Assembly (NCBI GenBank): GCA_963758525.1
Contig: CAVWVQ010000003.1
Span: 4,672,001-4,736,000, forward strand
Source of the DNA: an uncultured Phycisphaerales bacterium
GTDB taxonomy: Bacteria; Planctomycetota; Phycisphaerae; Tepidisphaerales; Tepidisphaeraceae
Length of the DNA: 64,000 nucleotides
Direction: 5' to 3'
The position numbers and the translations under genes are program-made. Positions 20,974 through 61,153 of this stretch are shown here, in pieces. Below the pieces are notes generated by a model. That model was not told where the DNA came from, ran no database searches, and worked only from the letters and a program-made list of their open reading frames with translations. How positions within the stretch are numbered: position 1 is the stretch's first letter; every line of letters starts with the position of its first letter.

Positions 20974-21012
20974 TCCCGAGCGTCGATGGCACCCGTCGCC
21001 GTCGAGAACATT

Positions 21013-21083
21013 TGGGGTATGGTGTAACGGTAGCACAAGCGCCTCTGGAGCGCTTTGTCTAGGTTCGAATCCTAGTACCCCAG
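21013..21083 (+). tRNA. tRNA-Gln(CTG), CCA not encoded
   Basis: TGGGGTA..TACCCCAG acceptor, AGCGC-CTCTGGA-GCGCT anticodon arm, GGTTCGAATCC T loop. Confidence 0.97.
21061..21083 (+). repeat. attL core (23 bp)
   Basis: AGGTTCGAATCCTAGTACCCCAG, identical to 61131-61153. Confidence 0.95.
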
Positions 21084-21283
21084 TTTTTAGCCCTAACATC
21101 CAAAAGCTGGATCTGCGCCATTGGGAAGGCGTTTTTGTGGCTCCGCGGCGGGTTTTTCTCGCGCCGGGCCAATTTCAGGTCAGCACCTAACATCACGGTC
21201 GATAACGCACGAGCAATCGAGCGAGTCCCACCGTTTTCCCCACCACCTCTCTTCCGCCGGTTCGTCACGGCATGGGAGTGGCG

Positions 21284-36897: not shown

Positions 36898-37044
36898 TTA
36901 ATCGAATCCAAAGCCAAAACACAGGCCCGGCATGAGTTCTTCCCCTCCCCCAGTAGTAGAGGGGGAGGGGGAGGCGCTATACCCCAGGACGATATTGCCC
37001 AGGTAGGAATTTGCAGTGCCGAGTTGCGCGGTGAAGCCGATCAC
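36898..37044 (-). CDS. 48-aa ORF absent from the ORF track
   Basis: GTG overlaps the upstream TGA; MIGFTAQLGTANSYLGNIVLGYS..LCFGFGFD* fills the gap. Confidence 0.55.
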   Translation of the reverse strand: MIGFTAQLGTANSYLGNIVLGYSASPSPSTTGGGEELMPGLCFGFGFD

Positions 37045-39398
37045 TCAATCCTCACGAAGGTTCCTGCCGTGTCGACCGCCTGATACTGCGCGTTGCCTCC
37101 AGCCGTCAGCGCCGTCAGCGCGGCGCCGGAAGCCACGGTGCCCGTGAGTGTCAGACTCGTGACGATCGACTTACTGGCGAGGAAGCACTTTTGGCCGATT
37201 ACCGTGACTGTCGGCAGCGCGATTGTGATGGACGCGATTGTGCTGCTACTGGATAGGTAGATCGTCTGATCGCGGGATGCCGCGAAGGTGACGGTGCCGC
37301 TGGTTGCGGCGCTCACCTGCACGGGGCTGACAAGGGCGTTTCCGGCTTGAATATTCGCCAGCAAGCCCGAGCCGCTCCACAGGGTGCTGACATTTAAGTG
37401 GCCGCCACCGCTGATGACGTTTTCCGTCGGCGTGTTGCCCTCGCTGGTCATGGTCGTGACGAAATTGCTGACGCTTGCGGGGCCAACGGATGCATCAGCG
37501 CTGCCCTGCCAGAGCACGATCGGCAGATAATTCAAAGCGCTGGCACGGAGATTTGGGTCGGAGTAGGCGACTTGACCGAAGCTCGTTGCAACCGTGGATA
37601 CCACGTCGTTCAGTGCGTAGGTTGTGCCGCCGCTGTAGGTGCCGCGATTGGTGTAGGCCGCATAGAGCTTGGCAAGGATGCCGCCCGGTGACGTGACTTG
37701 CTGCCAGTACGTTCCGTTCGTCACCGCGTTTCCGGTGTTCCCCGCACTCAGGCTGACGTAGTAAGTGAGGAAAGCACCATTGATCGTACTGGAGTAGTTC
37801 GTGCAGCCGTTGGTGCCGTTGTACATGTCCTTTTGGGACACGACGGCGGAAATGCCGCTGAAACTCCGGATCGGCAGCGACGGGTAGAGCATCGCGAAGT
37901 TGAGCATGGAAACGCCGCCCATGCTCTGGCCGATCAGGTGCAGATTTTTTACGCATGGCGCGCCGTTGGGGCCCGGCAATAGCGACAGCATCGTATCGTA
38001 AAATTGCTTCCACAAATTCACGCCGTTTGCCGCGCCCCACGGAGAAGCGTAGTTGTTCGCAAAGCTCGACGGATCGCCACGAAGGTATGCCATCGCCACG
38101 CCATTGGCCCGCAGCGTTGCGAACGCGGTCCCGGTGTCAGGATCGGCAGTGCGGAATCCCTGCTGCTCATTGCTGTTGTTCCCGTGCCCGACCAGGGCGA
38201 GATCGAACTGCGAAGCGCCCGTGTAACTCTCGGGTATCGCGAGTGTGCCGGTGTTGTCCACCGTCCCGTCCGGTCGCGTAATCGTGATCGGACACCAGCA
38301 CGGGGGCTGGAACCTGCTGTCGGTCCCGCCGCCGAGTGAGCCTTGATTGACCAGAATCCCTTTGATGGTGTTCGTGGAGCTGCTGGTCGAGACCTTGATC
38401 TGTGAGACGTTGACAAAAGCGCCAACTTTTCCGGTAGCGCCAAATGTGTTCGCAACAGTGTTGAAGTTTTCGGCGGTGGCAATCCCGGTGTTGTACCCTG
38501 TTTGGTTGTTTGTCCCGCCGCGCCCCACTGGAATGATCCCGAAATTTACGTTTTGGCCGTCGCTGGCAACAAAAAGATCATATGTAGTGCTGGTTACAAG
38601 ACCGCCGTTGAGGTTAAGCTCCGTTGATCCAGTTCCCGCCGCCACCGAAAGGTAGAATCCTCCGCCCGTGACCCTGAGTGCAAAACCACCATACGTCGTG
38701 TCGTTTGGATTCTGAAAGTACACTGACACGTCGTTCGTGGCATCTGACGCGTACGCGATTCGCACGTTGACCCGCCACGGCTTTGTGTTGTCGATCGGCT
38801 TGGGAAGCTGAATCGTTCCGACAGCGGCGGTCCCGTTTGTGCCGCTAACAATCCCGCCGCCGCCCGCGACGGTCAGCGTTGCGCCGGAGGTCGATCCGAA
38901 AGCACCGGTTGATTGAAACAGCGGTTCATAGAATGCCAACGTCGGCGGGGATGCCGGCTGGCCGATCAGGTTCGCCAGCGAGGTTTGCGCGCTCGACAGG
39001 TCGGAGAGGTTGTTCGCCACCTGCGCCACGGCGGACGATGTCAGCAGTGCGGCCGTCCCCAACCCGAGATTCGTCCGGGCCGTGGCCGGGGTCGGCAGAT
39101 CGCTCAGATTGTTGGCTTGGGCCAATCCCCATGCCGCCAGGCTCGCGGCGGTAACGATAGCCGTGACGGCCGCGCCACTGGAATGAGTTGCCGCCGTCGT
39201 GCTTTCCGCGCCGCGTGTCACCGTTACGGTAGTTCCGCTGATCGCCGTCGCCAGGAGGATTTCCGTGCCGATGAGCAGCCGAAAATTACCGGAGCCAGGC
39301 AAGCCGGTAGCGCTGGTGAGGCTGATCGACGTTGCCACCGGGTCGGTGATTGCTGAGGCAAGCGTCGTCTGAAAATTGTTGATTAACTGTTCAGCCAT
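37041..39398 (-). CDS. Tail spike/fibre with alpha/beta-hydrolase domain
   Basis: VTRGAESTTAATH anchor region, NNLSDL repeats, VGHG, GQSMGG, WQGSADASV, GGGHL. Confidence 0.75.
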   Translation of the reverse strand: MAEQLINNFQTTLASAITDPVATSISLTSATGLPGSGNFRLLIGTEILLATAISGTTVTVTRGAESTTAATHSSGAAVTAIVTAASLAAWGLAQANNLSDLPTPATARTNLGLGTAALLTSSAVAQVANNLSDLSSAQTSLANLIGQPASPPTLAFYEPLFQSTGAFGSTSGATLTVAGGGGIVSGTNGTAAVGTIQLPKPIDNTKPWRVNVRIAYASDATNDVSVYFQNPNDTTYGGFALRVTGGGFYLSVAAGTGSTELNLNGGLVTSTTYDLFVASDGQNVNFGIIPVGRGGTNNQTGYNTGIATAENFNTVANTFGATGKVGAFVNVSQIKVSTSSSTNTIKGILVNQGSLGGGTDSRFQPPCWCPITITRPDGTVDNTGTLAIPESYTGASQFDLALVGHGNNSNEQQGFRTADPDTGTAFATLRANGVAMAYLRGDPSSFANNYASPWGAANGVNLWKQFYDTMLSLLPGPNGAPCVKNLHLIGQSMGGVSMLNFAMLYPSLPIRSFSGISAVVSQKDMYNGTNGCTNYSSTINGAFLTYYVSLSAGNTGNAVTNGTYWQQVTSPGGILAKLYAAYTNRGTYSGGTTYALNDVVSTVATSFGQVAYSDPNLRASALNYLPIVLWQGSADASVGPASVSNFVTTMTSEGNTPTENVISGGGHLNVSTLWSGSGLLANIQAGNALVSPVQVSAATSGTVTFAASRDQTIYLSSSSTIASITIALPTVTVIGQKCFLASKSIVTSLTLTGTVASGAALTALTAGGNAQYQAVDTAGTFVRIE

Positions 39399-40010: not shown

Positions 40011-41567
40011 TCATTTTGCCGTGAACGTCCCGTCCGAAAATTCGGTGATCGTGATCGTGCGGATAACCGTTGCCGCGGTTGCCGGTTGCGTCACGGGAGC
40101 CGTTGTCGGCTGACTAGCGGCGGCGGCCGAGATAATCGTCGGCGCGAACGCATTCGCCTGCGCCGCCGCGCCTGGTCCGCCTTGGACCTGCTTGACATCC
40201 TTTTCGTAAGTGACGCCGTTGATCAGCAGTACAAAGCTGACATCCCATCCATTAAAAACCGGACCGACTGTCGCGCCAGCACTGGGCCCATGAACGACGC
40301 CCACGGGCTTCATGGCGACGGAGGTTAGACTGGTCGCAAACGCCTCAATAGTCACGTCGCCGGTTTGTGCGGGCCACGTGAGCACAACATCGCCCTTGCC
40401 GTCCTGAGTCGCGCCGATGGCGAGCGTCGGACGGGTTGCGGGCGCGGTTGCGGGCTGGCTACTTGGAGCTGTCGCGGGATTACTTTGAGCTTGCGTCGGC
40501 TTCTGCGGGATCGCCGGGGCGTTCGGATCCGCCTGCGAATAGAGCTTGTCGCCCGTGCCATGCACCGCGACTATTGGCCACGGCCCTGCATCCTGTCCAT
40601 ACGCAGCTCCGCAGATCCAAACGTTATTGCTGCTGTTGCAACCCGCACCATTCGCACCGTTGAGGATGCCGTTGCCCCAGCCCCAGGCGAAGTTGTTCGT
40701 GATGTTCACGTCCAGATCGCCCATGATCTCAATCGCCGACTTGGCCCACTGATCAAGGTTGGCGTCCGGGCCGTTCTGAATAATCGCGTTGCCGCTGATC
40801 GTGATGTGCTCGCCGAAGCCAACCCACTGGCCGGCGCTCTGATACCCGCCCGTCGCGCAGGAAATCCCCATGTGCGAGTCGGTGTTGTTGCTGATGTTCG
40901 GCAGCCAGTCGCTCATCCAGTTGTTGTTCACCGTCAGATGAGTGATCCCCTTCTGGAGCTCAATGCCGATGCGGGTGGCATGGGTGATGATGTTTCCGCT
41001 CACGTCGAGCGTGTCGCATTGCGACGAGAAATGCACCGGCTCGACGACATTGTCGTATGTGCTGGCGTCGGCGGTGTTGTTGTTGGCGGGGTATCCGAAC
41101 ACGCCCTCGGCGTTGAGCTGGCTGAACGCGTTTCTGTCGAAGTGCGAGTCATGCACGCCGGCGACGAAGATCCCGCGATGGCCGTTGCGGAACGTATTGT
41201 CGTGGATGTTGTACACGCCGTTCTCGCAGTGGATCTGGGCGCAGGTGCAGACGAAGCCCGTGAACTCTGTCATTGCTGCTGAACCTGATAGTGCCAGCAG
41301 CTCCTGATTGTCATTGGGAGCAATCCCGCCGGAGAGCGCGAGGACCGCCCCGTTGCCGATGTAGTGACGGCCCGTCGGCCACGTCGCCGCGGCGCCGCTG
41401 GGATTCGTGGCCAGCGTGTATGTGCCGGCGGCGAAATTGATCGTGTCGCCCAGCGCGCTGCTCAGGATCGGCGTGGTGTTGGCCGGTGTGACGTAGACCG
41501 TCGCCGCGCCGCAGATCCCGCTGGCGAGGCAGACGACGCAGAGGATGTCGAGCAGGCGGGAAATCAT
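40011..41567 (-). CDS. Secreted right-handed beta-helix protein
   Basis: Signal peptide then ATVYV, GDTINFAAGTY; Asn-ladder repeats (IHDNTF, VSGNII, ISGNAI, ITNN). Confidence 0.8.
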   Translation of the reverse strand: MISRLLDILCVVCLASGICGAATVYVTPANTTPILSSALGDTINFAAGTYTLATNPSGAAATWPTGRHYIGNGAVLALSGGIAPNDNQELLALSGSAAMTEFTGFVCTCAQIHCENGVYNIHDNTFRNGHRGIFVAGVHDSHFDRNAFSQLNAEGVFGYPANNNTADASTYDNVVEPVHFSSQCDTLDVSGNIITHATRIGIELQKGITHLTVNNNWMSDWLPNISNNTDSHMGISCATGGYQSAGQWVGFGEHITISGNAIIQNGPDANLDQWAKSAIEIMGDLDVNITNNFAWGWGNGILNGANGAGCNSSNNVWICGAAYGQDAGPWPIVAVHGTGDKLYSQADPNAPAIPQKPTQAQSNPATAPSSQPATAPATRPTLAIGATQDGKGDVVLTWPAQTGDVTIEAFATSLTSVAMKPVGVVHGPSAGATVGPVFNGWDVSFVLLINGVTYEKDVKQVQGGPGAAAQANAFAPTIISAAAASQPTTAPVTQPATAATVIRTITITEFSDGTFTAK

Positions 41568-41570
41568 GGG

Positions 41571-41903
41571 TCACCTGTGCACATGGAAAGTGATATCGAC
41601 CGCCGCGCCCAGCAGGGTCAGGAACGCGCCGATTACGACGGTCCAAAACAACCCTTTTCGTTCCTTCCGCTGGCCCTCGATCTTCGCCTCGTTGTCGACC
41701 GCCTTCTTCTTGAACTCCGCCACGTCAGTCTCGATGGCGATGAGCCTGTAGATCAGCCCATCCTTGATCCTGTCGCCTTCCCCGCCGTTGATCGTCTGGT
41801 TGATCTTCCCGACGGTCGTGAGGATTCCATCGAGCTTCAGATTCACGTCGGTCAGCTCAGCGTTGACCAACTTCCGTCGTCGCACTTCTGGTTTCTCAGC
41901 CAT
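41571..41903 (-). CDS. Coiled-coil protein with C-terminal TM (holin/XhlA-like layout)
   Basis: GLIYRLIAIE..LFWTVVIGAFLTLLGAAV. Confidence 0.6.
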   Translation of the reverse strand: MAEKPEVRRRKLVNAELTDVNLKLDGILTTVGKINQTINGGEGDRIKDGLIYRLIAIETDVAEFKKKAVDNEAKIEGQRKERKGLFWTVVIGAFLTLLGAAVDITFHVHR

Positions 41904-42393
41904 GGGACACCTGCCAGGCTCGACGCCGCAGCAGCAACCCGATGGCTACCGCCTCCCCGATCGCCTCCCGGAACTTCTCGTCCAGAGGCTTGCCGACATA
42001 GCGATGGATCTGCGCGTACTTGATCGCGTCCCTGACGGCACGCATATCGTCGTGAGCCGAAAACAACACCCTGGCCGACAGCGGATTGGTTTCGCTCATC
42101 AGTTTGAGAAACTGCACGCCCCTCATTCCAGGCATCATCTGGTCGCTGACGATGGCGTGTGGCTCGATTCCTGTGCTCAGCAGGCGGACGGCCGCCTCGG
42201 CCGAATCCGCCAGATGCACTACGTAATCATCGCGAAACATCACTTCCAGCATGTGGAGCGTGTCGGAACAATCATCGACGAACAGCACGACGTGGCCCGC
42301 GCGCTCGACGTCCTCGGCCCAGAGCTTCACCAGGGCGTCGCTGAACCCCACGGGTGTCAGTTCCGGGGTAATCGTTTCATCGTCGGGAGTCAT
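41896..42393 (-). CDS. Stand-alone receiver-domain response regulator
   Basis: LFVDD, VSDQMMPGMRG, LFSAH, YVGKP. Confidence 0.92.
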   Translation of the reverse strand: MTPDDETITPELTPVGFSDALVKLWAEDVERAGHVVLFVDDCSDTLHMLEVMFRDDYVVHLADSAEAAVRLLSTGIEPHAIVSDQMMPGMRGVQFLKLMSETNPLSARVLFSAHDDMRAVRDAIKYAQIHRYVGKPLDEKFREAIGEAVAIGLLLRRRAWQVSHG

Positions 42394-42408: not shown

Positions 42409-42987
42409 TCACGCTGCGATGGCGACGCCGAGGGCAAAGCGCCCCGCGGCCATCAGCGTCGCGAGCATCGTGTTCTCGCTGATCGATTCGGCGGAAATCC
42501 CGTACTTCGATGCCGCGCCGATCGCGGCGATCTGGAGCTGGCGGAGGTTGTTGGCCTGGGCGATGTACTGCGGGTGATCCCCGCTCTGCTTGTACTGGGC
42601 CTCGAGCTGGGCCCATTTGAGCGCGTCGGGACCGTACACCGTCGCGAAGGGGACCAGGTCCGCCGCGCTCTTGCCCGTCAGGCTCGCCAGCGACGACGCC
42701 AGCGACTGCACCGCCGCCTGCTCCTGCGCGCTGAGTTCTTTGGCTGTTTCAGTGGGCGCGGGCGCGGCATCGGATTTTAGATGGGCGGTGCCGCCGCTTG
42801 GCATGGGCACCTCGATCGGCGTCTTGGCAATGCCGTCAGCGGGCGCGACGTGCGGCAGTTCCGCGGTGGCGACAGAAACCGCCGGCGGCTCCGCGGGGAT
42901 CTCCAGTGATGGCGCGGTGGAATGCTCGACGGCCGCGTGTTGAGCGGTTTCAGTTTCGTTGGTCTGTGTGTGGGTGATGGGGTTCAT
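42409..42987 (-). CDS. Hypothetical protein
   Basis: 192 aa, Pro/Ala-rich N terminus, hydrophobic C terminus. Confidence 0.6.
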   Translation of the reverse strand: MNPITHTQTNETETAQHAAVEHSTAPSLEIPAEPPAVSVATAELPHVAPADGIAKTPIEVPMPSGGTAHLKSDAAPAPTETAKELSAQEQAAVQSLASSLASLTGKSAADLVPFATVYGPDALKWAQLEAQYKQSGDHPQYIAQANNLRQLQIAAIGAASKYGISAESISENTMLATLMAAGRFALGVAIAA

Positions 42988-43888
42988 TGGCTTGGTGCGC
43001 CGCGCCGCCGAACAGCGGGGAGCGCGCCTCCTCTTGGTTGATCAGGGCGTCCATGGTCGCGGCGTTCGCCTCACGCAAGGCTTTCGCGTCCGGATCCAGC
43101 AGCGGATCGGCCGAGACATAGTTCAGGTACTCCGGCTCGGCGCGCACCCACGCGGCTTTCACGGTCGGCTCGGTGATCGTCTTCACATCGGCCGTCGCGC
43201 TCTGCAGGGCGCCCGCATCGCTCAGGATCTGCGCCCGTGACGATCCCCCCAGCGTGGAGTCGGCCGTCGCGTACGTGGTCAGCTCTGTGGCGACTTGCGG
43301 GCCCATCGCCGCGGCGTACGTCCGAAATGGCGCGGAGGCGCTACAGCCGGTCAGGCATGTGAGCATCAGGAGCGCGATCACCAAGGCCCCCGCGAGTTTC
43401 TTGGCGCCAGCTTGGTTGGATGCTGCCGAGCTGTTCGAAGCTTGTGCGTTCATCATTTCGAATGCCTCCGTGAGTGCGTCTCCGTCGGTCGTCGAGGCGG
43501 TCTGGGCGGCGCTAGCCAGCTTGTCGGCGACGGTTTTCAGTTGTCCCGAGAGTTGCGGCTCGATCCCCTGGATCACGCCGGCCGCCTGGTGCAGCAGCTC
43601 GGATGGCGGAATATCGGTACCGGCGCCCACCTGCACGACCAGCTTCTGCCCGGTCGATTGCATGCCCGCCGGGACGGTTCCCTCGACGGTCTTGCCGTCC
43701 ACATAGTGCTGACCGGCCGACCAGATCGTTGCCAAGGTAAAGAGGCCGCCGACGAAGGTGATCGCAGCCGTCTGGCGATCCGCAGGCACGTTGAGCAGCG
43801 TCAGGCCCGCGGCCAGGATCGTCAGGGCATAGACCCGAAAATGTGGATCCCGCAACAGACTGCGCAACTCCTGTAGCCAAGTGGGCAT
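42950..43888 (-). CDS. Two-TM (holin-like) protein fused to an internal lipoprotein-signal domain
   Basis: Two N-terminal TM helices; KKLAGALVIALLMLTCLTGC lipobox mid-protein. Confidence 0.6.
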   Translation of the reverse strand: MPTWLQELRSLLRDPHFRVYALTILAAGLTLLNVPADRQTAAITFVGGLFTLATIWSAGQHYVDGKTVEGTVPAGMQSTGQKLVVQVGAGTDIPPSELLHQAAGVIQGIEPQLSGQLKTVADKLASAAQTASTTDGDALTEAFEMMNAQASNSSAASNQAGAKKLAGALVIALLMLTCLTGCSASAPFRTYAAAMGPQVATELTTYATADSTLGGSSRAQILSDAGALQSATADVKTITEPTVKAAWVRAEPEYLNYVSADPLLDPDAKALREANAATMDALINQEEARSPLFGGAAHQANEPHHPHTDQRN

Positions 43889-43993: not shown

Positions 43994-45339
43994 TCACACA
44001 TCCGTGGCGGTGCAGTACTGGAATCCCCCGTTGCCCGCGCCGACGTTCCATTTGCTCAGGACGTAAACGATGGGCGTCTGCCACCCCTTGGATCCGTTGA
44101 CGCTGTAGGGAGCAAAGTCGGCGCTGACCGGGAAATCCGGGCAACCTCCCGCGGGGTTGCCGAGCGTGAAATCGGTGTGGGCCGCAGTGGAGTTCATCGC
44201 TTCAGTGTTGACCAGCGCGAAGGCGTTATTGCCGACGCCGTCGCCATTGGCATCAAAGATCGCCCGGAATCCCGGAGCGGATCCAGACGCGTACCAATAG
44301 GAGTTGCGGGCGATCGCGGCAGGATAGAGCGAGCGGAACGTCTGCTGTCCCCGGTTGTAGTAGGCGCTCCATGGATTGCTGCCGCCGCTGCTGTTGTCTA
44401 TCGATGCGATCGCCAACGCCGCGCCGCCTGCGCCGCGGCGCGAGTAGCATAGTCCGCCTGCGCCGCCGCGACCGCCGCTGCCACTGTCGGATAGCCGTTT
44501 ACCTGTTGACTGACGCTCTGTGGCCCGGCCTGGCCGGTGCCCACCGGAACGGCGAAGGTCCATCGGAGCTGATCGAGGACCAGGCGCAGCTCTTCGAGCT
44601 GGATGCAGGTGATGTAGTCGCCGATGTTGTGGAAACCAAAGTAGCCATCCCCGCCCATATCGATTCGCCCGGTAGGCGAATTGTTGAACCAGGAGAGGTT
44701 GTTCGGCGGCGCGAAGGTGTTGTCCAGCAGATCCGGCGTTGCGGTGTTGTCCAGCACCCAGGAAGTGCCATCAAACCGATACCAGCGAAATGGCTGGCCT
44801 GAACCGTACAGGTGCTCAGCGCACTGGCCGGCGATCGCCGGGTTGCCGTCGACGTCATAGAGGGAGCTGGTTGAATAGATCTGCCGCGGCGCCTGCCGTC
44901 GCCATGATCCGGTTGGTCCCGTCATGGCCGTCGCCCCCGCACCGCCGAGGACCTGGTACCGCAAGACCGGCGGCAAGCCCGCCAAAGACCGCGCCCGATC
45001 GATCGTCATCGCGGGGATCGACCCCGGAACGGCACCGGCCAGCGCGCCCGCATTCGAATAGTCCACAAAATACTGGAACTGGATCGACTGCAGTCCCCGC
45101 AGCAGACCATAGTCAGGGGTGTTGCTCGCATACTGCTGTACGAACTGCACGTCCGTGCCCGCGGAGATGGCGCCGCCGGCCAGCGTCGGCAGCAGCGCGA
45201 GCGCGCCTGCATTGGTGATCCCCGAAATCGTCGCCGCCACAAGCTGCCGCTCGTTGAACGCGGCGATCAGCATGTTCCAGACCGCCGCCGCGTCGTTCAG
45301 ATCGGTCCCCGCGGTGATTGGCGCAGTCCAACTAGGCAT
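43994..45339 (-). CDS. Putative tail protein, frameshifted near 44425
   Basis: MPSWTAPITAG frame (ORF 44398..45495) continues in ORF 43994..44563. Confidence 0.55.
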
Positions 45340-52757: not shown

Positions 52758-53189
52758 ATGAGCATCACCTACGCGACGGCACAGCGGTACATCGATATCA
52801 CGAGCTGTGCTCTGGGCGCGACCCTCGGCATCAACACGGTCAAGGAGATCAAATACAAGATCAAGACCAAGATGATCAAAGGGTCTGGGGATGCGGACAA
52901 GACGCTCAGCTTCCAGGCCAAGGGGATGGCGGAGGTTGACGGCTCGGCAACCATCGACGACGTCGTGCAGGCTGAGGCGCTACTGGGCCAAGCGGCCGCA
53001 GATCTTGTCTTCACGGGATTGAACCCCGCCACCGGCAAAGTGCTGACTGTCACGGTCAAAAATTGCCAGTTCTTCGACATGGACGGCACGGCCAAACACG
53101 ACGATCTGCACGGCACGTCCGTCACCTTCAGCGGCTTCCTCGTCGGCGGATCGGGCGGCACCGCGATCGTCACCACCGCATCGGCGTAA
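52758..53189 (+). CDS. Putative tail tube protein
   Basis: 143 aa, beta-rich, GGAG upstream; function inferred from size and context. Confidence 0.5.
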   Translation: MSITYATAQRYIDITSCALGATLGINTVKEIKYKIKTKMIKGSGDADKTLSFQAKGMAEVDGSATIDDVVQAEALLGQAAADLVFTGLNPATGKVLTVTVKNCQFFDMDGTAKHDDLHGTSVTFSGFLVGGSGGTAIVTTASA

Positions 53190-53212
53190 TCTTTTTGATT
53201 CCGAGCCCAGCC

Positions 53213-53899
53213 ATGGGCATCAAATCAGACGACATCGAGCGCCTGCAGGCCAAGTTCGCCGGCTTCTTCGCCGGCATGGCCGAGGATCTGGAGCACGTGG
53301 GCACGATCGGCGCCGAGGCGATCGTTCAGACCACACTGGCAGGCATCGGCGAAGATGACCAGCCGTTTGCGCCCTACAGCCAGCAGTATGCCGCATTGCT
53401 CGCATCCGTCGGAGGCAAACAGCGCGGCGTTGTCGACCTGCGCGGCATCTTCCTCCACGACGATCAAACGCTGGAGCCCAAACGCAAGTTGAAGGGTGAG
53501 CAGCTTGCGAAGTGGAAGGAGAACCGCCGCCGCCAGGGGGCATTCCGTCAGGCCTACGTCCGCGTCACCGTCGGCGGCCGCACGTTCATTGCCCGCACCA
53601 AACAAACCCGCCCGCAGGTGGGCCCGACCGATCCGCTCTCCGAAATGTCCCTCGATCTGATCTCGGTGAAGGCGACGGATTCCAAGCTGACGATCATGTA
53701 CACCCCGCGCAGCAAGGAGTACATGATCTATCACCAGCACGGCGAAGGGAAGAACCCCCAGCGACTCTGGTTCACGGCCCGCAAGGCCGCGGTGGAACGG
53801 GCGATGATCAACGCCCTGAAGCTCTGCATCAAAGCCCGCGTCCAGTGGTTTAACGATCACAACAGCGGCGGCACACCGCCGACAGGAGCCAATGTCTGA
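53213..53899 (+). CDS. Putative neck/virion morphogenesis protein
   Basis: PFAPYSQQY, VDLRG, YHQHGEGKNPQRLWF. Confidence 0.6.
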   Translation: MGIKSDDIERLQAKFAGFFAGMAEDLEHVGTIGAEAIVQTTLAGIGEDDQPFAPYSQQYAALLASVGGKQRGVVDLRGIFLHDDQTLEPKRKLKGEQLAKWKENRRRQGAFRQAYVRVTVGGRTFIARTKQTRPQVGPTDPLSEMSLDLISVKATDSKLTIMYTPRSKEYMIYHQHGEGKNPQRLWFTARKAAVERAMINALKLCIKARVQWFNDHNSGGTPPTGANV

Positions 53900-54392
53900 C
53901 ACCATTCAATCCAACCTGGTGAGCGTCCTGGCGGCGATGACCGGCTCCGCTCCCGGCGGCAAAGCGTTCGCGAGCGTTCAGGTCGTGGAGGATCTGGCGG
54001 CACTGGAGCGGATCGCCGGCTTGTTCGCATTCCCGGTCTGCGGGGTGATCGCCAAGGTCGCCGAGTGGGGCAACGCGACGGACAACGCGGAGGATCACGT
54101 CGAGCGGCTGGAGTTCGTCGTGGCGATCAAGATGGCCGTGCGGCGGGCGGTGCAGGAGGATGACACCACGGTGATCAACGGCCTGACGGCGATGGCAGAG
54201 GCGTGCCGGGCGCGTGTGCTGAGCGACACCACCCGCGGCGGCCTGGCATCACCGATTCGCTTCAACGGCCGCTTCATGCGTGACACGGATTTGCGGGGAC
54301 CGACAAAGATCGACGCGCCCAAGAAGGGGCATCAGTTTTATACCGCGACGTTCCCGGTGGTCTGCGGTCTGCGCGTCGAGCGGGTCTTCTGA
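53892..54392 (+). CDS. Putative tail terminator protein
   Basis: 166 aa, AGGAG upstream, overlaps the neck gene; DTTRGGLA. Confidence 0.5.
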   Translation: MSDTIQSNLVSVLAAMTGSAPGGKAFASVQVVEDLAALERIAGLFAFPVCGVIAKVAEWGNATDNAEDHVERLEFVVAIKMAVRRAVQEDDTTVINGLTAMAEACRARVLSDTTRGGLASPIRFNGRFMRDTDLRGPTKIDAPKKGHQFYTATFPVVCGLRVERVF

Positions 54393-55906: not shown

Positions 55907-56845
55907 TTACGTCAGCGACGGAGCGGTGTAGCTGCCGTTGGTCGTGATCTGCATCACGACGCCATTAGTGCGGTTGCGGGCGCCGATCCCGAAGATCCGG
56001 CGCCAGTGCTTGCCGAGCAGCGGGTTGGTTTGCACGTCCACCGGCTTGTTGTCCGGCGTGGCCAACTGCAGCCCGCGCTCATCCGCCATATCGCTTTCGC
56101 GCCAGCGGAGCGGCGGTTCTTTGGTGCGGTCGAAGGCGCCAATGTAGCCCTGCGGCCAATGCGGGAATTCCACCAGCTCGCCCAGGGCGCTGAGGATGCG
56201 ACCGCGCGTCCGAATGCCGGTGCCGAGCATCCCGTATTGGCTGGGGTTGGCGTACTTCCCGAAGAGGTCCTGGGAGAGCTGCGTATTGAGGATCTCCACG
56301 GGCGGGACAAAGTCCGTGCCGGCGGTGAAGTTGCTGGCGATGTAGTCGGCATCGGCGCGGTTCACGATGTAGATGATGTCGGCATCGTTGCCCACGTTGC
56401 GCAGCGTTGAACGAATGGTCGCGAAGTTCGCGGCGGTCGGCTGGCTGGTGCCGCTCACCAGATAGTGATTCAGCGACGCCAGGAGGATTTCCTGGCCGTA
56501 TGCCCAGACCGATCCAACGCTGCCGTCGGCATTGGCCAGGCGGGTGACGTTGACCGGTGCGAGGTTGGGCACGCCCGTCAGCGCTGTCGCGTTCATGCCG
56601 GGCCATTTGGTGTCGTCGAACGTGAAATTGACGTTGTTGAGCAGACCATTGAGCAGCTCGACGATCACCGTCTCGATGTCCGCAAGCGTCGCCTGCAGGA
56701 TGGTCGTCGCGAGATCGATGAACTTGGCCCGCTTGAGCCAGGCGTACTCGTAGATCTGCTTGTCGCCGAAGGCGTAGATCGGGAAACCCACATACCAGCG
56801 CTGCCCGGCCCGCGTCGCTTCGACGCTGCCGCGGGTAGCCAGCTT
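55907..56845 (-). pseudogene. Putative major capsid protein, 5'-truncated
   Basis: Frame is open back to [22 protein letters not shown] and meets a TAG at the junction; ends RNRTNGVVMQITTNGSYTAP; followed by a terminator. Confidence 0.6.
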
Positions 56846-59531: not shown

Positions 59532-59749
59532 TGATGCAGGCCGTGGAACAAGCCGACCGACTCCTCACCGATCGACAGGTAGGTGAGCTTTATGGCGTCA
59601 CGCGCTTCACTGTGTGGCACTGGGCGCGGGCGGGCCGGATTCCGGGCCCGATCGTCAACCGCACGCGATTTGCGCGCTGGTCGCACCTGCAGATCCAGGA
59701 GTCGATCAGGGCGCTGCGTGAAGCCGAGCGTCAGGAGGCGTCTTCGTGA
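59531..59749 (+). CDS. Excisionase/AlpA-like HTH protein
   Basis: LLTDRQVGELYGVTRFTVWHWARAGRIPGP; GTGA overlap with the integrase. Confidence 0.85.
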   Translation: MMQAVEQADRLLTDRQVGELYGVTRFTVWHWARAGRIPGPIVNRTRFARWSHLQIQESIRALREAERQEASS

Positions 59750-60939
59750 GCATCTATCGCCGCAAATCCGCCAATGGGAAGCCGTCTCGGTTCTACACCG
59801 CCGAATTCTGGTACCGCGGCCACCTCCATCGGCAGGGGGGGTTCGTCGACCGTGATTCCGCGAAACATTGGATGATGAGCGAGTCGCTCAAGTTGCGGCG
59901 CGGCTCCAGTGGCTACATCAAGCCGCTGTTCAAGGCTCTGGTAATGCCTCTGATTGAGCAGTTTTCCGACCGGTTGCGGGAACGCGATCGCGACGAGATG
60001 TACGCCTACACGGCCGAGCGCCGGCTCAATCGCCTCGCCGCAGAGTGCGCATGGGTGACCTTGGGCGACGTGACGCAGAGCAGTCTCGATCGATGGGCGT
60101 CGGGAGAAAGCACTTGGCGCGGGAAGCCGATCGGGGGACGCACGAAAAATCAGTACATCGACATCGCGGTGCAGTGGGGGAAGTGGCTGGCATCGCCACG
60201 CGTCGCGAAGTTGTCATCCAATCCATTCTCCGGCACCGAACACGTCGCCGCCAAACACAACAATCTGTACCGCCGCTCCGGGACGCTGGAGGAGCTGAAC
60301 AAGTTGCTGTCCACATGCGCGGCATCACGCAGGCTCTATTACGTGTTCCGGATCTATTCGCCGCTTCGTGCCAAGACGATCGGCCGGCTGACCTGGGACA
60401 TGCTCCACCTCAACGCCGCGCCGCCTTTTGCCAAGACGCCGGCGGAGTGGAACAAGAGCAAACGCGAGGAGAAGCACACCCTGCGCTACGACGTGGCCCA
60501 GCAGCTCCGCACAGCCAGGCGCAAGGCGAAGGCAGAGGATCTGGTGTTCCCAGACGCGCCGACCCTCGAAGATTTCCGCGCCGATCTCAAGGCGGCCGGG
60601 GTGGCGATCGACGATGGCAAGGGCAATCGCCGCCTCGACTATCACGCCTTGCGCCGGACGCTGGTCAGGATCGCCAAGGGCGCCGGCCTATCGATCGACC
60701 AGGCGTCTCTGCTCCTCGGTCACCGAGATCCACGCACGACGCGGAAATATTACGACGAAGATCAGGTGTCACCGGATCTAGGCGCCGCCGTCGAGAAGCT
60801 CCCGACACTGGGCGCTGTCAGGAGGCGCAATGATCTTCATCCAGACCGCGGGCACGATCATCAATGTCTCGAAGCTGACGATGCTCGACATCGCCGCTGG
60901 GCGCCAAGTCGTCGCTCATTTTGTGGGGGGGCTCGGTAA
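59746..60939 (+). CDS. Tyrosine integrase (true stop probably at 60833 if one base is missing near 60825)
   Basis: SPLR, YHALRRT, LLGHRD, TTRKYY; adjacent to attR. Confidence 0.92.
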   Translation: MSIYRRKSANGKPSRFYTAEFWYRGHLHRQGGFVDRDSAKHWMMSESLKLRRGSSGYIKPLFKALVMPLIEQFSDRLRERDRDEMYAYTAERRLNRLAAECAWVTLGDVTQSSLDRWASGESTWRGKPIGGRTKNQYIDIAVQWGKWLASPRVAKLSSNPFSGTEHVAAKHNNLYRRSGTLEELNKLLSTCAASRRLYYVFRIYSPLRAKTIGRLTWDMLHLNAAPPFAKTPAEWNKSKREEKHTLRYDVAQQLRTARRKAKAEDLVFPDAPTLEDFRADLKAAGVAIDDGKGNRRLDYHALRRTLVRIAKGAGLSIDQASLLLGHRDPRTTRKYYDEDQVSPDLGAAVEKLPTLGAVRRRNDLHPDRGHDHQCLEADDARHRRWAPSRRSFCGGAR

Positions 60940-61130: not shown

Positions 61131-61153
61131 AGGTTCGAATCCTAGTACCCCAG
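61131..61153 (+). repeat. attR core (23 bp)
   Basis: Exact copy of the tRNA-Gln 3' end. Confidence 0.95.

Follow-up and report, generated by a model that had tools for sequence, protein, structure and literature searches.

What is a stand-alone receiver domain doing in the late block of a prophage that carries no recognisable kinase? The question is raised by a 64,000-nucleotide stretch of DNA (the window), in which the first-pass annotation had described a receiver gene among holin-like genes and had suggested that the phage may read or drain the phosphoryl flow of host two-component systems to time lysis. The timing of lysis is usually explained by holin accumulation together with phage-made antiholins or superinfection signals. 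If the suggestion is true, a kinase-less receiver placed in a lysis block puts the moment of bursting under the control of host phospho-signalling, and the CheY-like genes of phages that are now filed as auxiliary gain a function.

The receiver gene itself was analyzed for its coding potential, domain content, and predicted structure. Its frame (positions 41896 to 42393, minus strand) was the only one of the six with a positive coding score (+23.7, compared to -0.6 to -68.7 for the other five). The 165-residue product has no transmembrane (TM) segment and matched a single Pfam family, Response_reg (PF00072; E 9.8e-15; 55.1 bits against a curated cut-off of 30.2 bits; residues 36 to 139). The motifs VDD, SDQMMP, FSAH, and YVGKP begin at residues 39, 83, 111, and 132, and the catalytic set is complete, consisting of the acidic pair D40/D41, the phospho-acceptor D84, the switch residue S112, and K135. 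The AlphaFold model (mean pLDDT 90.3) has the five strands with flanking helices of the receiver fold, and the C-terminal residues 139 to 164 form one long helix. These results demonstrate that the receiver is intact and has no output domain, as had been claimed from the sequence letters.

The receiver was assigned to the HupR type on the basis of its SDQxMP loop and of its closest structures and sequences, and it keeps 23 of the 32 columns conserved in that subfamily. The top Foldseek matches of the model were HupR receiver domains (E 8e-10, 29 to 30% identity), the best NCBIfam match was a NosR-family receiver model, and the named models closest to it describe receivers from phosphodiesterases of the NosR type and activators of the NtrC type. 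The HupR receiver (PDB 2vuh, 2vui, and 2jk1) and the NosR-type and HD-domain regulators share the SDQxMP phospho-loop with the window receiver, which differs from them in having no AAA+, HD-GYP, or DNA-binding output, in carrying an extra N-terminal helix, and in its position within the late block of a prophage. Response regulators that consist of a single receiver domain (CheY, Spo0F, DivK, and CpdR are examples) can serve as phosphate sinks or hubs. Like them, the window receiver must act by binding or by phosphotransfer; unlike them, it has no cognate kinase nearby, is phage-borne, and has a membrane protein as its proposed target.

The receiver gene sits in a 40-kb, att-bounded element of a 6.47-Mb genome, whose owner is probably a planctomycete, as a signal-peptide motif suggests. 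The left end of the element is a tRNA-Gln gene (21012 to 21084, plus strand), the 3' part of which (21061 to 21083) is repeated at 61131 to 61153 (plus strand) as the right att repeat. The element encodes a tyrosine integrase (59746 to 60939, plus strand), replication genes, tape-measure-like and tail-like genes, and a major head protein (55907 to 56845, minus strand). The head gene is apparently truncated at its 5' end, since its match covers profile positions 165 to 381 of 390 beginning at residue 78, with about 87 profile positions absent from the start. Between 56778 and 56845 it meets a plus-strand pentapeptide-repeat gene, and a proper start is absent from both genes. The junction near 56845 probably marks the loss of the packaging and control modules by deletion, or else it reflects a misassembly. 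In addition, the frame of a tail-like gene shifts near 44420 (within 44398 to 44563) through decay or a sequencing error. Taken together, the truncated head gene and the frame change suggest that the prophage is probably defective or misassembled; it is probably defective in this genome, so that any system built on the receiver may no longer run here.

Profile searches with Pfam, PHROGs, and NCBIfam yielded no terminase, portal, or endolysin among the prophage open reading frames (ORFs) scanned. The two Amidase_2 genes of the host genome both lie outside the prophage, and a divergent endolysin could escape searches of this kind. We also found no kinase family among the ORFs scanned (22 plus 52 against Pfam and 37 against PHROGs), in agreement with the first-pass annotation, and no cognate histidine kinase of a phage-encoded two-component system was matched in the element, although a segment lost by deletion could have carried one.

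We then compared the genes that surround the receiver to known lysis genes. In the order of transcription, the block consists of a 312-residue ORF (42950 to 43888), a 192-residue protein (42409 to 42987), the receiver, a 110-residue membrane protein (41571 to 41903), and a 518-residue right-handed beta-helix protein (40011 to 41567), all on the minus strand. The 110-residue protein is predicted to form a coiled-coil in the cytoplasm and has a basic patch and a single TM helix near its C terminus (residues 84 to 102); the basic residues directly before this helix place the soluble part in the cytoplasm by prediction, which is where the receiver is expected as well. XhlA-type holins are small proteins in which a soluble N-terminal part is followed by a single TM helix at the C terminus, and the 110-residue protein has this architecture. 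Its language-model features in the ESM Atlas placed it near phage clusters (0.93 to 0.94), and the nearest named cluster was that of XhlA (0.92), in which 43% of the members carry PF10779. The protein itself showed no PF10779 match at E 0.01 and no other match in Pfam or NCBIfam; in PHROGs, its match to the holin phrog_689 was below threshold (E 0.09). Its topology and these sub-threshold matches suggest that it is of the holin type.

The first 8 nt of the gene for the 110-residue protein lie within the receiver gene, exactly as first reported. We rejected this overlap as evidence of a partnership, because tight spacing is normal in the block: 3 of its 10 junctions overlap and 6 of 10 are at 9 nt or less. 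Promoter and terminator counts were at chance level, and scanning revealed no promoter of the sigma-70 type separating the receiver from the genes upstream of it, which is weak evidence. The receiver may be co-expressed with its neighbors in a late operon.

Upstream, the 192-residue protein has a low-complexity N-terminal half and a hydrophobic C terminus (residues 174 to 192), and its gene ends 15 nt before that of the receiver. It had no family match in Pfam, PHROGs, or NCBIfam and was absent from all 140 of the other genomes of the family. The 312-residue ORF begins with two moderately hydrophobic N-terminal segments, which look holin-like, followed by a lipoprotein with a helical domain. 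It contains an internal GGAGG and ATG at 43456 and then a lipobox (LTG-C182), so that a single open frame fuses the holin-like N-terminal part (43457 to 43888) with a lipoprotein (42950 to 43456) having its own strong ribosome-binding site and ATG start; the frame may yield two products. The lipoprotein part matched Rz-like spanins below threshold (spanin2_3, E 0.039; phrog_456, E 0.039), its structure model is of low confidence (pLDDT 54), and the Atlas leads for the 312-residue protein were all below 0.9. The beta-helix protein, which has an N-terminal hydrophobic segment resembling a signal peptide and eight further matches in the host genome, lies at the usual position of an endolysin and may be a matrix-degrading release enzyme. 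None of the neighbors of the receiver reached the cut-off of a lysis model in Pfam, NCBIfam, or PHROGs. The earlier premise that these neighbors are lysis proteins is plausible though weak; it is favored by the XhlA-like features (0.92 to 0.94) and by the holin and spanin matches, and is weakened by the fact that all of these are sub-threshold and that no endolysin was found.

Blocks of lipoprotein and small TM genes analogous to that of the window were located at seven loci (L001 and L139 to L144). The order lipoprotein, small TM-coil protein, secreted beta-helix-like protein, and tail-like protein occurs in another prophage-like element of the host genome (L001) and at a locus in a different genome of the family (L141, G063), and L140 has the first two genes of this order. 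The small TM proteins are analogues by layout alone, as BLASTP of the 110-residue protein against its L001 or L140 counterpart gave no alignment. None of the seven blocks contains a receiver, with some of the blocks reaching contig edges, and the 192-residue gene is missing from them as well. This indicates that the receiver is dispensable for the block, which looks like an envelope or lysis block of these phages to which the receiver is an accessory addition. A related prophage remnant (G096) has tail genes in common with the window and lacks the entire receiver block, which makes it uninformative on the receiver. In searches of 141 family genomes, the 110-residue protein had one match, interrupted by three stops, and the two matches of the 312-residue protein were discarded as spurious after inspection.

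Several further observations were made on these elements. The lipoprotein of L001 (13649 to 14227) and those of L139 to L144 have a second, C-terminal TM segment, an architecture like that of unimolecular spanins; 7 of the 141 family genomes have this form, in most cases within a phage-like context, and it had no Pfam match and no named PHROG match. In three prophage-like elements, the gene after the small TM gene, at the usual place of an endolysin, encodes a secreted beta-helix-like protein, at 40011 to 41567 in the window, 12028 to 13269 in L001, and 6574 to 7629 in L141. The tail-like protein with an alpha/beta-hydrolase-like region at 37041 to 39398 is 59% identical to that of L001 (9576 to 12173) in the same genome; the elements that share it are otherwise different, and none of the 140 other family genomes has it.

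We investigated whether the window receiver belongs to a family of its own. A search of 1.84 billion representatives returned 18,069 matches, and among the best 150 of these, seven short proteins and one PAS-fused protein share the N-terminal extension of the window receiver, a clade-specific helix at about residues 12 to 33 (19 to 28 in the AlphaFold model). The clade comprises ten distinct members, the window receiver included, which are only 33 to 46% identical. The phospho-site residues are kept in all ten, which at this level of identity fits selection for phospho-chemistry. A profile of the extension trained on eight sequences scored the held-out members P0237 and P0050 but gave no hit among the 250 other stored proteins, and when a database was searched with an alignment centered on the extension, the hits among 7,997 scored proteins were the 11 sequences already known plus a single weak outsider. 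On receiver-core columns alone, the clade was supported at 96/96 in a careful tree of 40 rows, picked after a quick tree had been seen from the 109 rows of that tree, themselves drawn from 328 scored domains; in the 109-row quick tree, the window receiver fell outside the clade. The window receiver is the most divergent member, differing in 9 of 32 conserved columns compared to 4 to 7 in the rest of the clade, and no other member has so long an end branch. The PAS-fused member (P0050, 284 residues, on a 73.8-kb Logan contig) joins a PAS domain to the clade receiver with no kinase and no output domain, which points to a signal-reading role. None of the named models searched corresponds to this clade, which is marked by the extension and includes a form fused to PAS.

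The distribution of the clade is sparse. Every other member is a singleton from a Logan, ENA, or JGI metagenome contig (4 to 108 kb), and no member was found on viral contigs with a single protein, an alignment, or two patterns as the query. The one match on metagenome contigs proved to be a cellular hybrid kinase, and scans of contigs across GTDB gave first no locus and then two, both outside the clade. A 400-genome sample of the phylum gave three weak matches confined to the generic FVDD part, and the extension was found in none of the 140 other family genomes. In the plasmid search, none of 94 records reached 80% query coverage, and the 12 matches listed were all without the extension; the INPHARED searches gave one and eight weak unannotated matches. 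The pattern recovered only 9 of the 11 known clade sequences, plus the window, so the blank scans are no proof that the clade is absent from what was scanned. The distribution is consistent with a mobile family, probably one of phages.

Receivers of any lineage were sought in phage genomes as well. When viral contigs were scanned with a broad pattern, 99 stretches matched, and 11 of the 80 listed as loci held a receiver. Among published phages, the gene order in Alteromonas phage V22 is an amidase (gp28), a coiled-coil protein with a hydrophobic N terminus (gp29), a receiver (gp30), an Rz-like protein (gp31), and a protein with two TM segments (gp32). Alteromonas phage A5 has the same type of gene set followed by an annotated endolysin, and two kin contigs repeat the layout, a third matching locus being V22 itself. 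The gene just downstream of the receiver matches Rz-like spanins with E 7e-6 in V22 (gp31) and 3e-8 in A5. In an IMG/VR phage (L069), the receiver gene is overlapped by the gene for a 91-residue coiled-coil protein with a hydrophobic N terminus, and an Amidase_2 gene adjoins. Receiver genes thus lie beside lysis-type genes in V22, A5, their two kin contigs, and L069, all with receivers unrelated to that of the window. Two other short viral receivers (L027 and L028) are not in such a context, which leaves one in three of the short viral receivers inspected. In two of the three annotated phage records inspected, the match was a full-length regulator accompanied by a partner gene and unconnected with lysis. 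Five loci on IMG/VR contigs of 40 to 190 kb (L026, L046, L062, L081, and L082) encode proteins of 600 to 950 residues with a receiver at the end, which are possibly phage hybrid kinases.

V22 gp30 and A5 gp11 resemble the window receiver in being single-domain phage receivers that follow tail genes and abut a gene for a small membrane-type protein with a coiled-coil; genes of spanin-like and holin-like character stand alongside, as proposed for the window. They differ in belonging to another receiver lineage, with 17% identity in a structural match, and the window, V22/A5, and L069 receivers fell on separate branches of the quick tree. V22 and A5 also differ in that their spanin is recognisable as such and in that an amidase (V22) or an endolysin (A5) is annotated. 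Both the receiver domain class and phage CheY-like genes at such a position in published genomes are already known. In the accessible parts of the two reports, V22 gp30 and A5 gp11 are CheY-like proteins proposed as class II auxiliary metabolic genes, the flanking genes are given as unknown, and no lysis link is drawn (PMC7289586, PMC10579305). Among the listed titles and abstract openings of an open-access library, no receiver was described as controlling lysis.

Our preferred explanation, which we hold tentatively and at somewhat less than even confidence, is that the receiver is a host-phosphorylated switch on the holin-like membrane protein whose gene overlaps its own, tuning the time of membrane permeabilisation. 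The receiver would be made together with the late block and would obtain its phosphate from a host kinase; phosphorylation of the intact site by host kinases is likely, and the host genome carries two other HupR-type receivers, one of them on a hybrid kinase (G000:C3:455120). In one phospho-state, the receiver would bind the cytoplasmic coiled-coil of the XhlA-like 110-residue neighbor, and this binding would delay or release permeabilisation. What the sequence shows is the anatomy of the locus; we infer the co-expression, the host phospho-donor, the holin-type role of the 110-residue protein, the direct binding, and the effect on lysis time. The phospho-site kept in all ten clade members, the dedicated clade with its N-terminal extension and PAS-fused member, the predicted cytoplasmic orientation and XhlA-like character of the neighbor, the recurring block order in L001 and L141, and the layouts of V22, A5, and L069 count in favor of the switch. 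The lack of an endolysin, terminase, or portal match, the truncated head gene, the failure of any neighbor to pass a lysis model, the absence of a receiver from all seven analogous blocks, the finding of only one in three short viral receivers in a lysis-type context, the two annotated phage records with full-length regulators outside lysis, the frequency of overlaps in the block, and the divergence of the window member, together with its place outside the clade in the quick tree and an AU test that did not reject its grouping with the host receivers, count against it.

The proposed switch was compared to known lysis systems. XhlA of PBSX (PF10779) is like the 110-residue protein in being small and in having one TM helix, and it names the nearest Atlas cluster; the window block differs from the PBSX cassette in having neither a PF10779 match nor an XlyA-like amidase, and the PBSX cassette as described has no receiver. 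Lysis by PBSX requires XhlA, according to the part of the source available (PMC6834076). In T4 (T and rI) and N4 (gp63 and gp62), a co-encoded regulator acts on the holin, as is proposed for the window, and the accessible text on N4 proposes that gp62 acts via the cytoplasmic part of the pinholin gp63; there is no homology, and the signal in N4 is superinfection (PMC12642591). N4 serves as a precedent for control of a pinholin from the cytoplasm by a co-encoded regulator; its "Receiver domain" is something else, a label introduced in that text for part of the pinholin, and denotes no phospho-acceptor domain (PMC12642591).

The strongest competitor, which we consider unlikely though well worth keeping in view, is that the receiver works as a sink for phosphate, or as a decoy, in host two-component or c-di-GMP-linked signalling, encoded by an auxiliary (moron) gene inserted after the tail module. 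Here, the receiver would drain or mimic HupR-type phosphoryl flow in late infection or lysogeny and would make no contact with the holin-like protein. A receiver with no output domain suits this role, as do the nearest models, which are NosR-type phosphodiesterase and NtrC-type receivers, and the nearest structure, which is HupR; the kinases of the two host HupR-type receivers could cross-talk with it, all seven analogous loci have the block without the receiver, and the reports cited above place V22 gp30 and A5 gp11, as a proposal, in class II of the auxiliary genes. However, receivers of at least three separate lineages (window, V22/A5, and L069) abut a small coiled-coil membrane-type gene, and a pure sink needs none. 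The promoter scan upstream of the receiver also speaks, weakly, against a sink.

Clearly less probable, and in our judgment improbable, is an envelope module apart from lysis timing, in which the receiver would gate the 192-residue protein or the lipoprotein in superinfection exclusion, membrane remodelling, or export of the beta-helix enzyme. This would account for the absence of an endolysin match, for the secreted beta-helix protein after the small TM gene in the window, L001, and L141, for neighbors that lack a firm family, and for the joint absence from the analogous blocks of the receiver and the 192-residue gene, which may travel together. Conversely, the named weak matches are all of lysis type (holin, Rz-like spanin, and XhlA), and the genes flanking the V22 and A5 receivers are recognisable as those of a spanin and an endolysin.

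Least probable of all is that a host-type receiver, captured once, is drifting without current function as a passenger in a decaying prophage, a reading that would fit the probable head-module deletion, the frameshift near 44420, the long branch and column deviations of the window receiver, a 99%-identical copy in another assembly (P0002) whose sequence departs in frame after residue 127, and an AU test that did not reject its grouping with the two HupR-type receivers of the host (p 0.224), but against which stand the open frame with all five catalytic positions present, the N-terminal extension, which nine distant proteins have in common with it and none of 140 family genomes contains, and a closest host paralogue of only 39% identity together with phage-like codon use (a score reached by 19 of 949 host pieces), both of which argue against recent capture. 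The possibility of a one-off insertion, which the first-pass annotation had named as fatal to its proposal, is in part countered by the dedicated, conserved clade and the phage-like codons; the absence of a receiver from the seven analogous blocks leaves that part of the objection standing.

Extended beyond the window, the switch on a holin-like protein becomes a broader proposal, to which we give a little less credence than to the switch itself: phages may repeatedly and independently have recruited bare receivers (of the HupR type in the window, of the OmpR/CheY type in the Alteromonas phages) as phosphorylation-gated antiholins that read the state of host two-component systems and bind a small holin-type coiled-coil protein, the window protein representing a new clade with an N-terminal helix and a PAS-fused form. 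The window locus adds an independent receiver lineage to this proposal and is in itself a weak example and a poor test bed, with a host that is probably uncultured, a prophage that is probably defective, and no endolysin found. The idea of a lysis receiver is directly testable in the cultured phages V22 and A5.

One further feature of the prophage was observed outside the receiver block. Three virion-like genes on the plus strand (52758 to 54392) lie within the otherwise minus-strand morphogenesis block. No flanking inverted repeat of 9 nt was found around them. In the related remnant G096, a homologue of one of the three genes is co-directional with the tape-measure-like gene, and the segment in the window may be an inversion.
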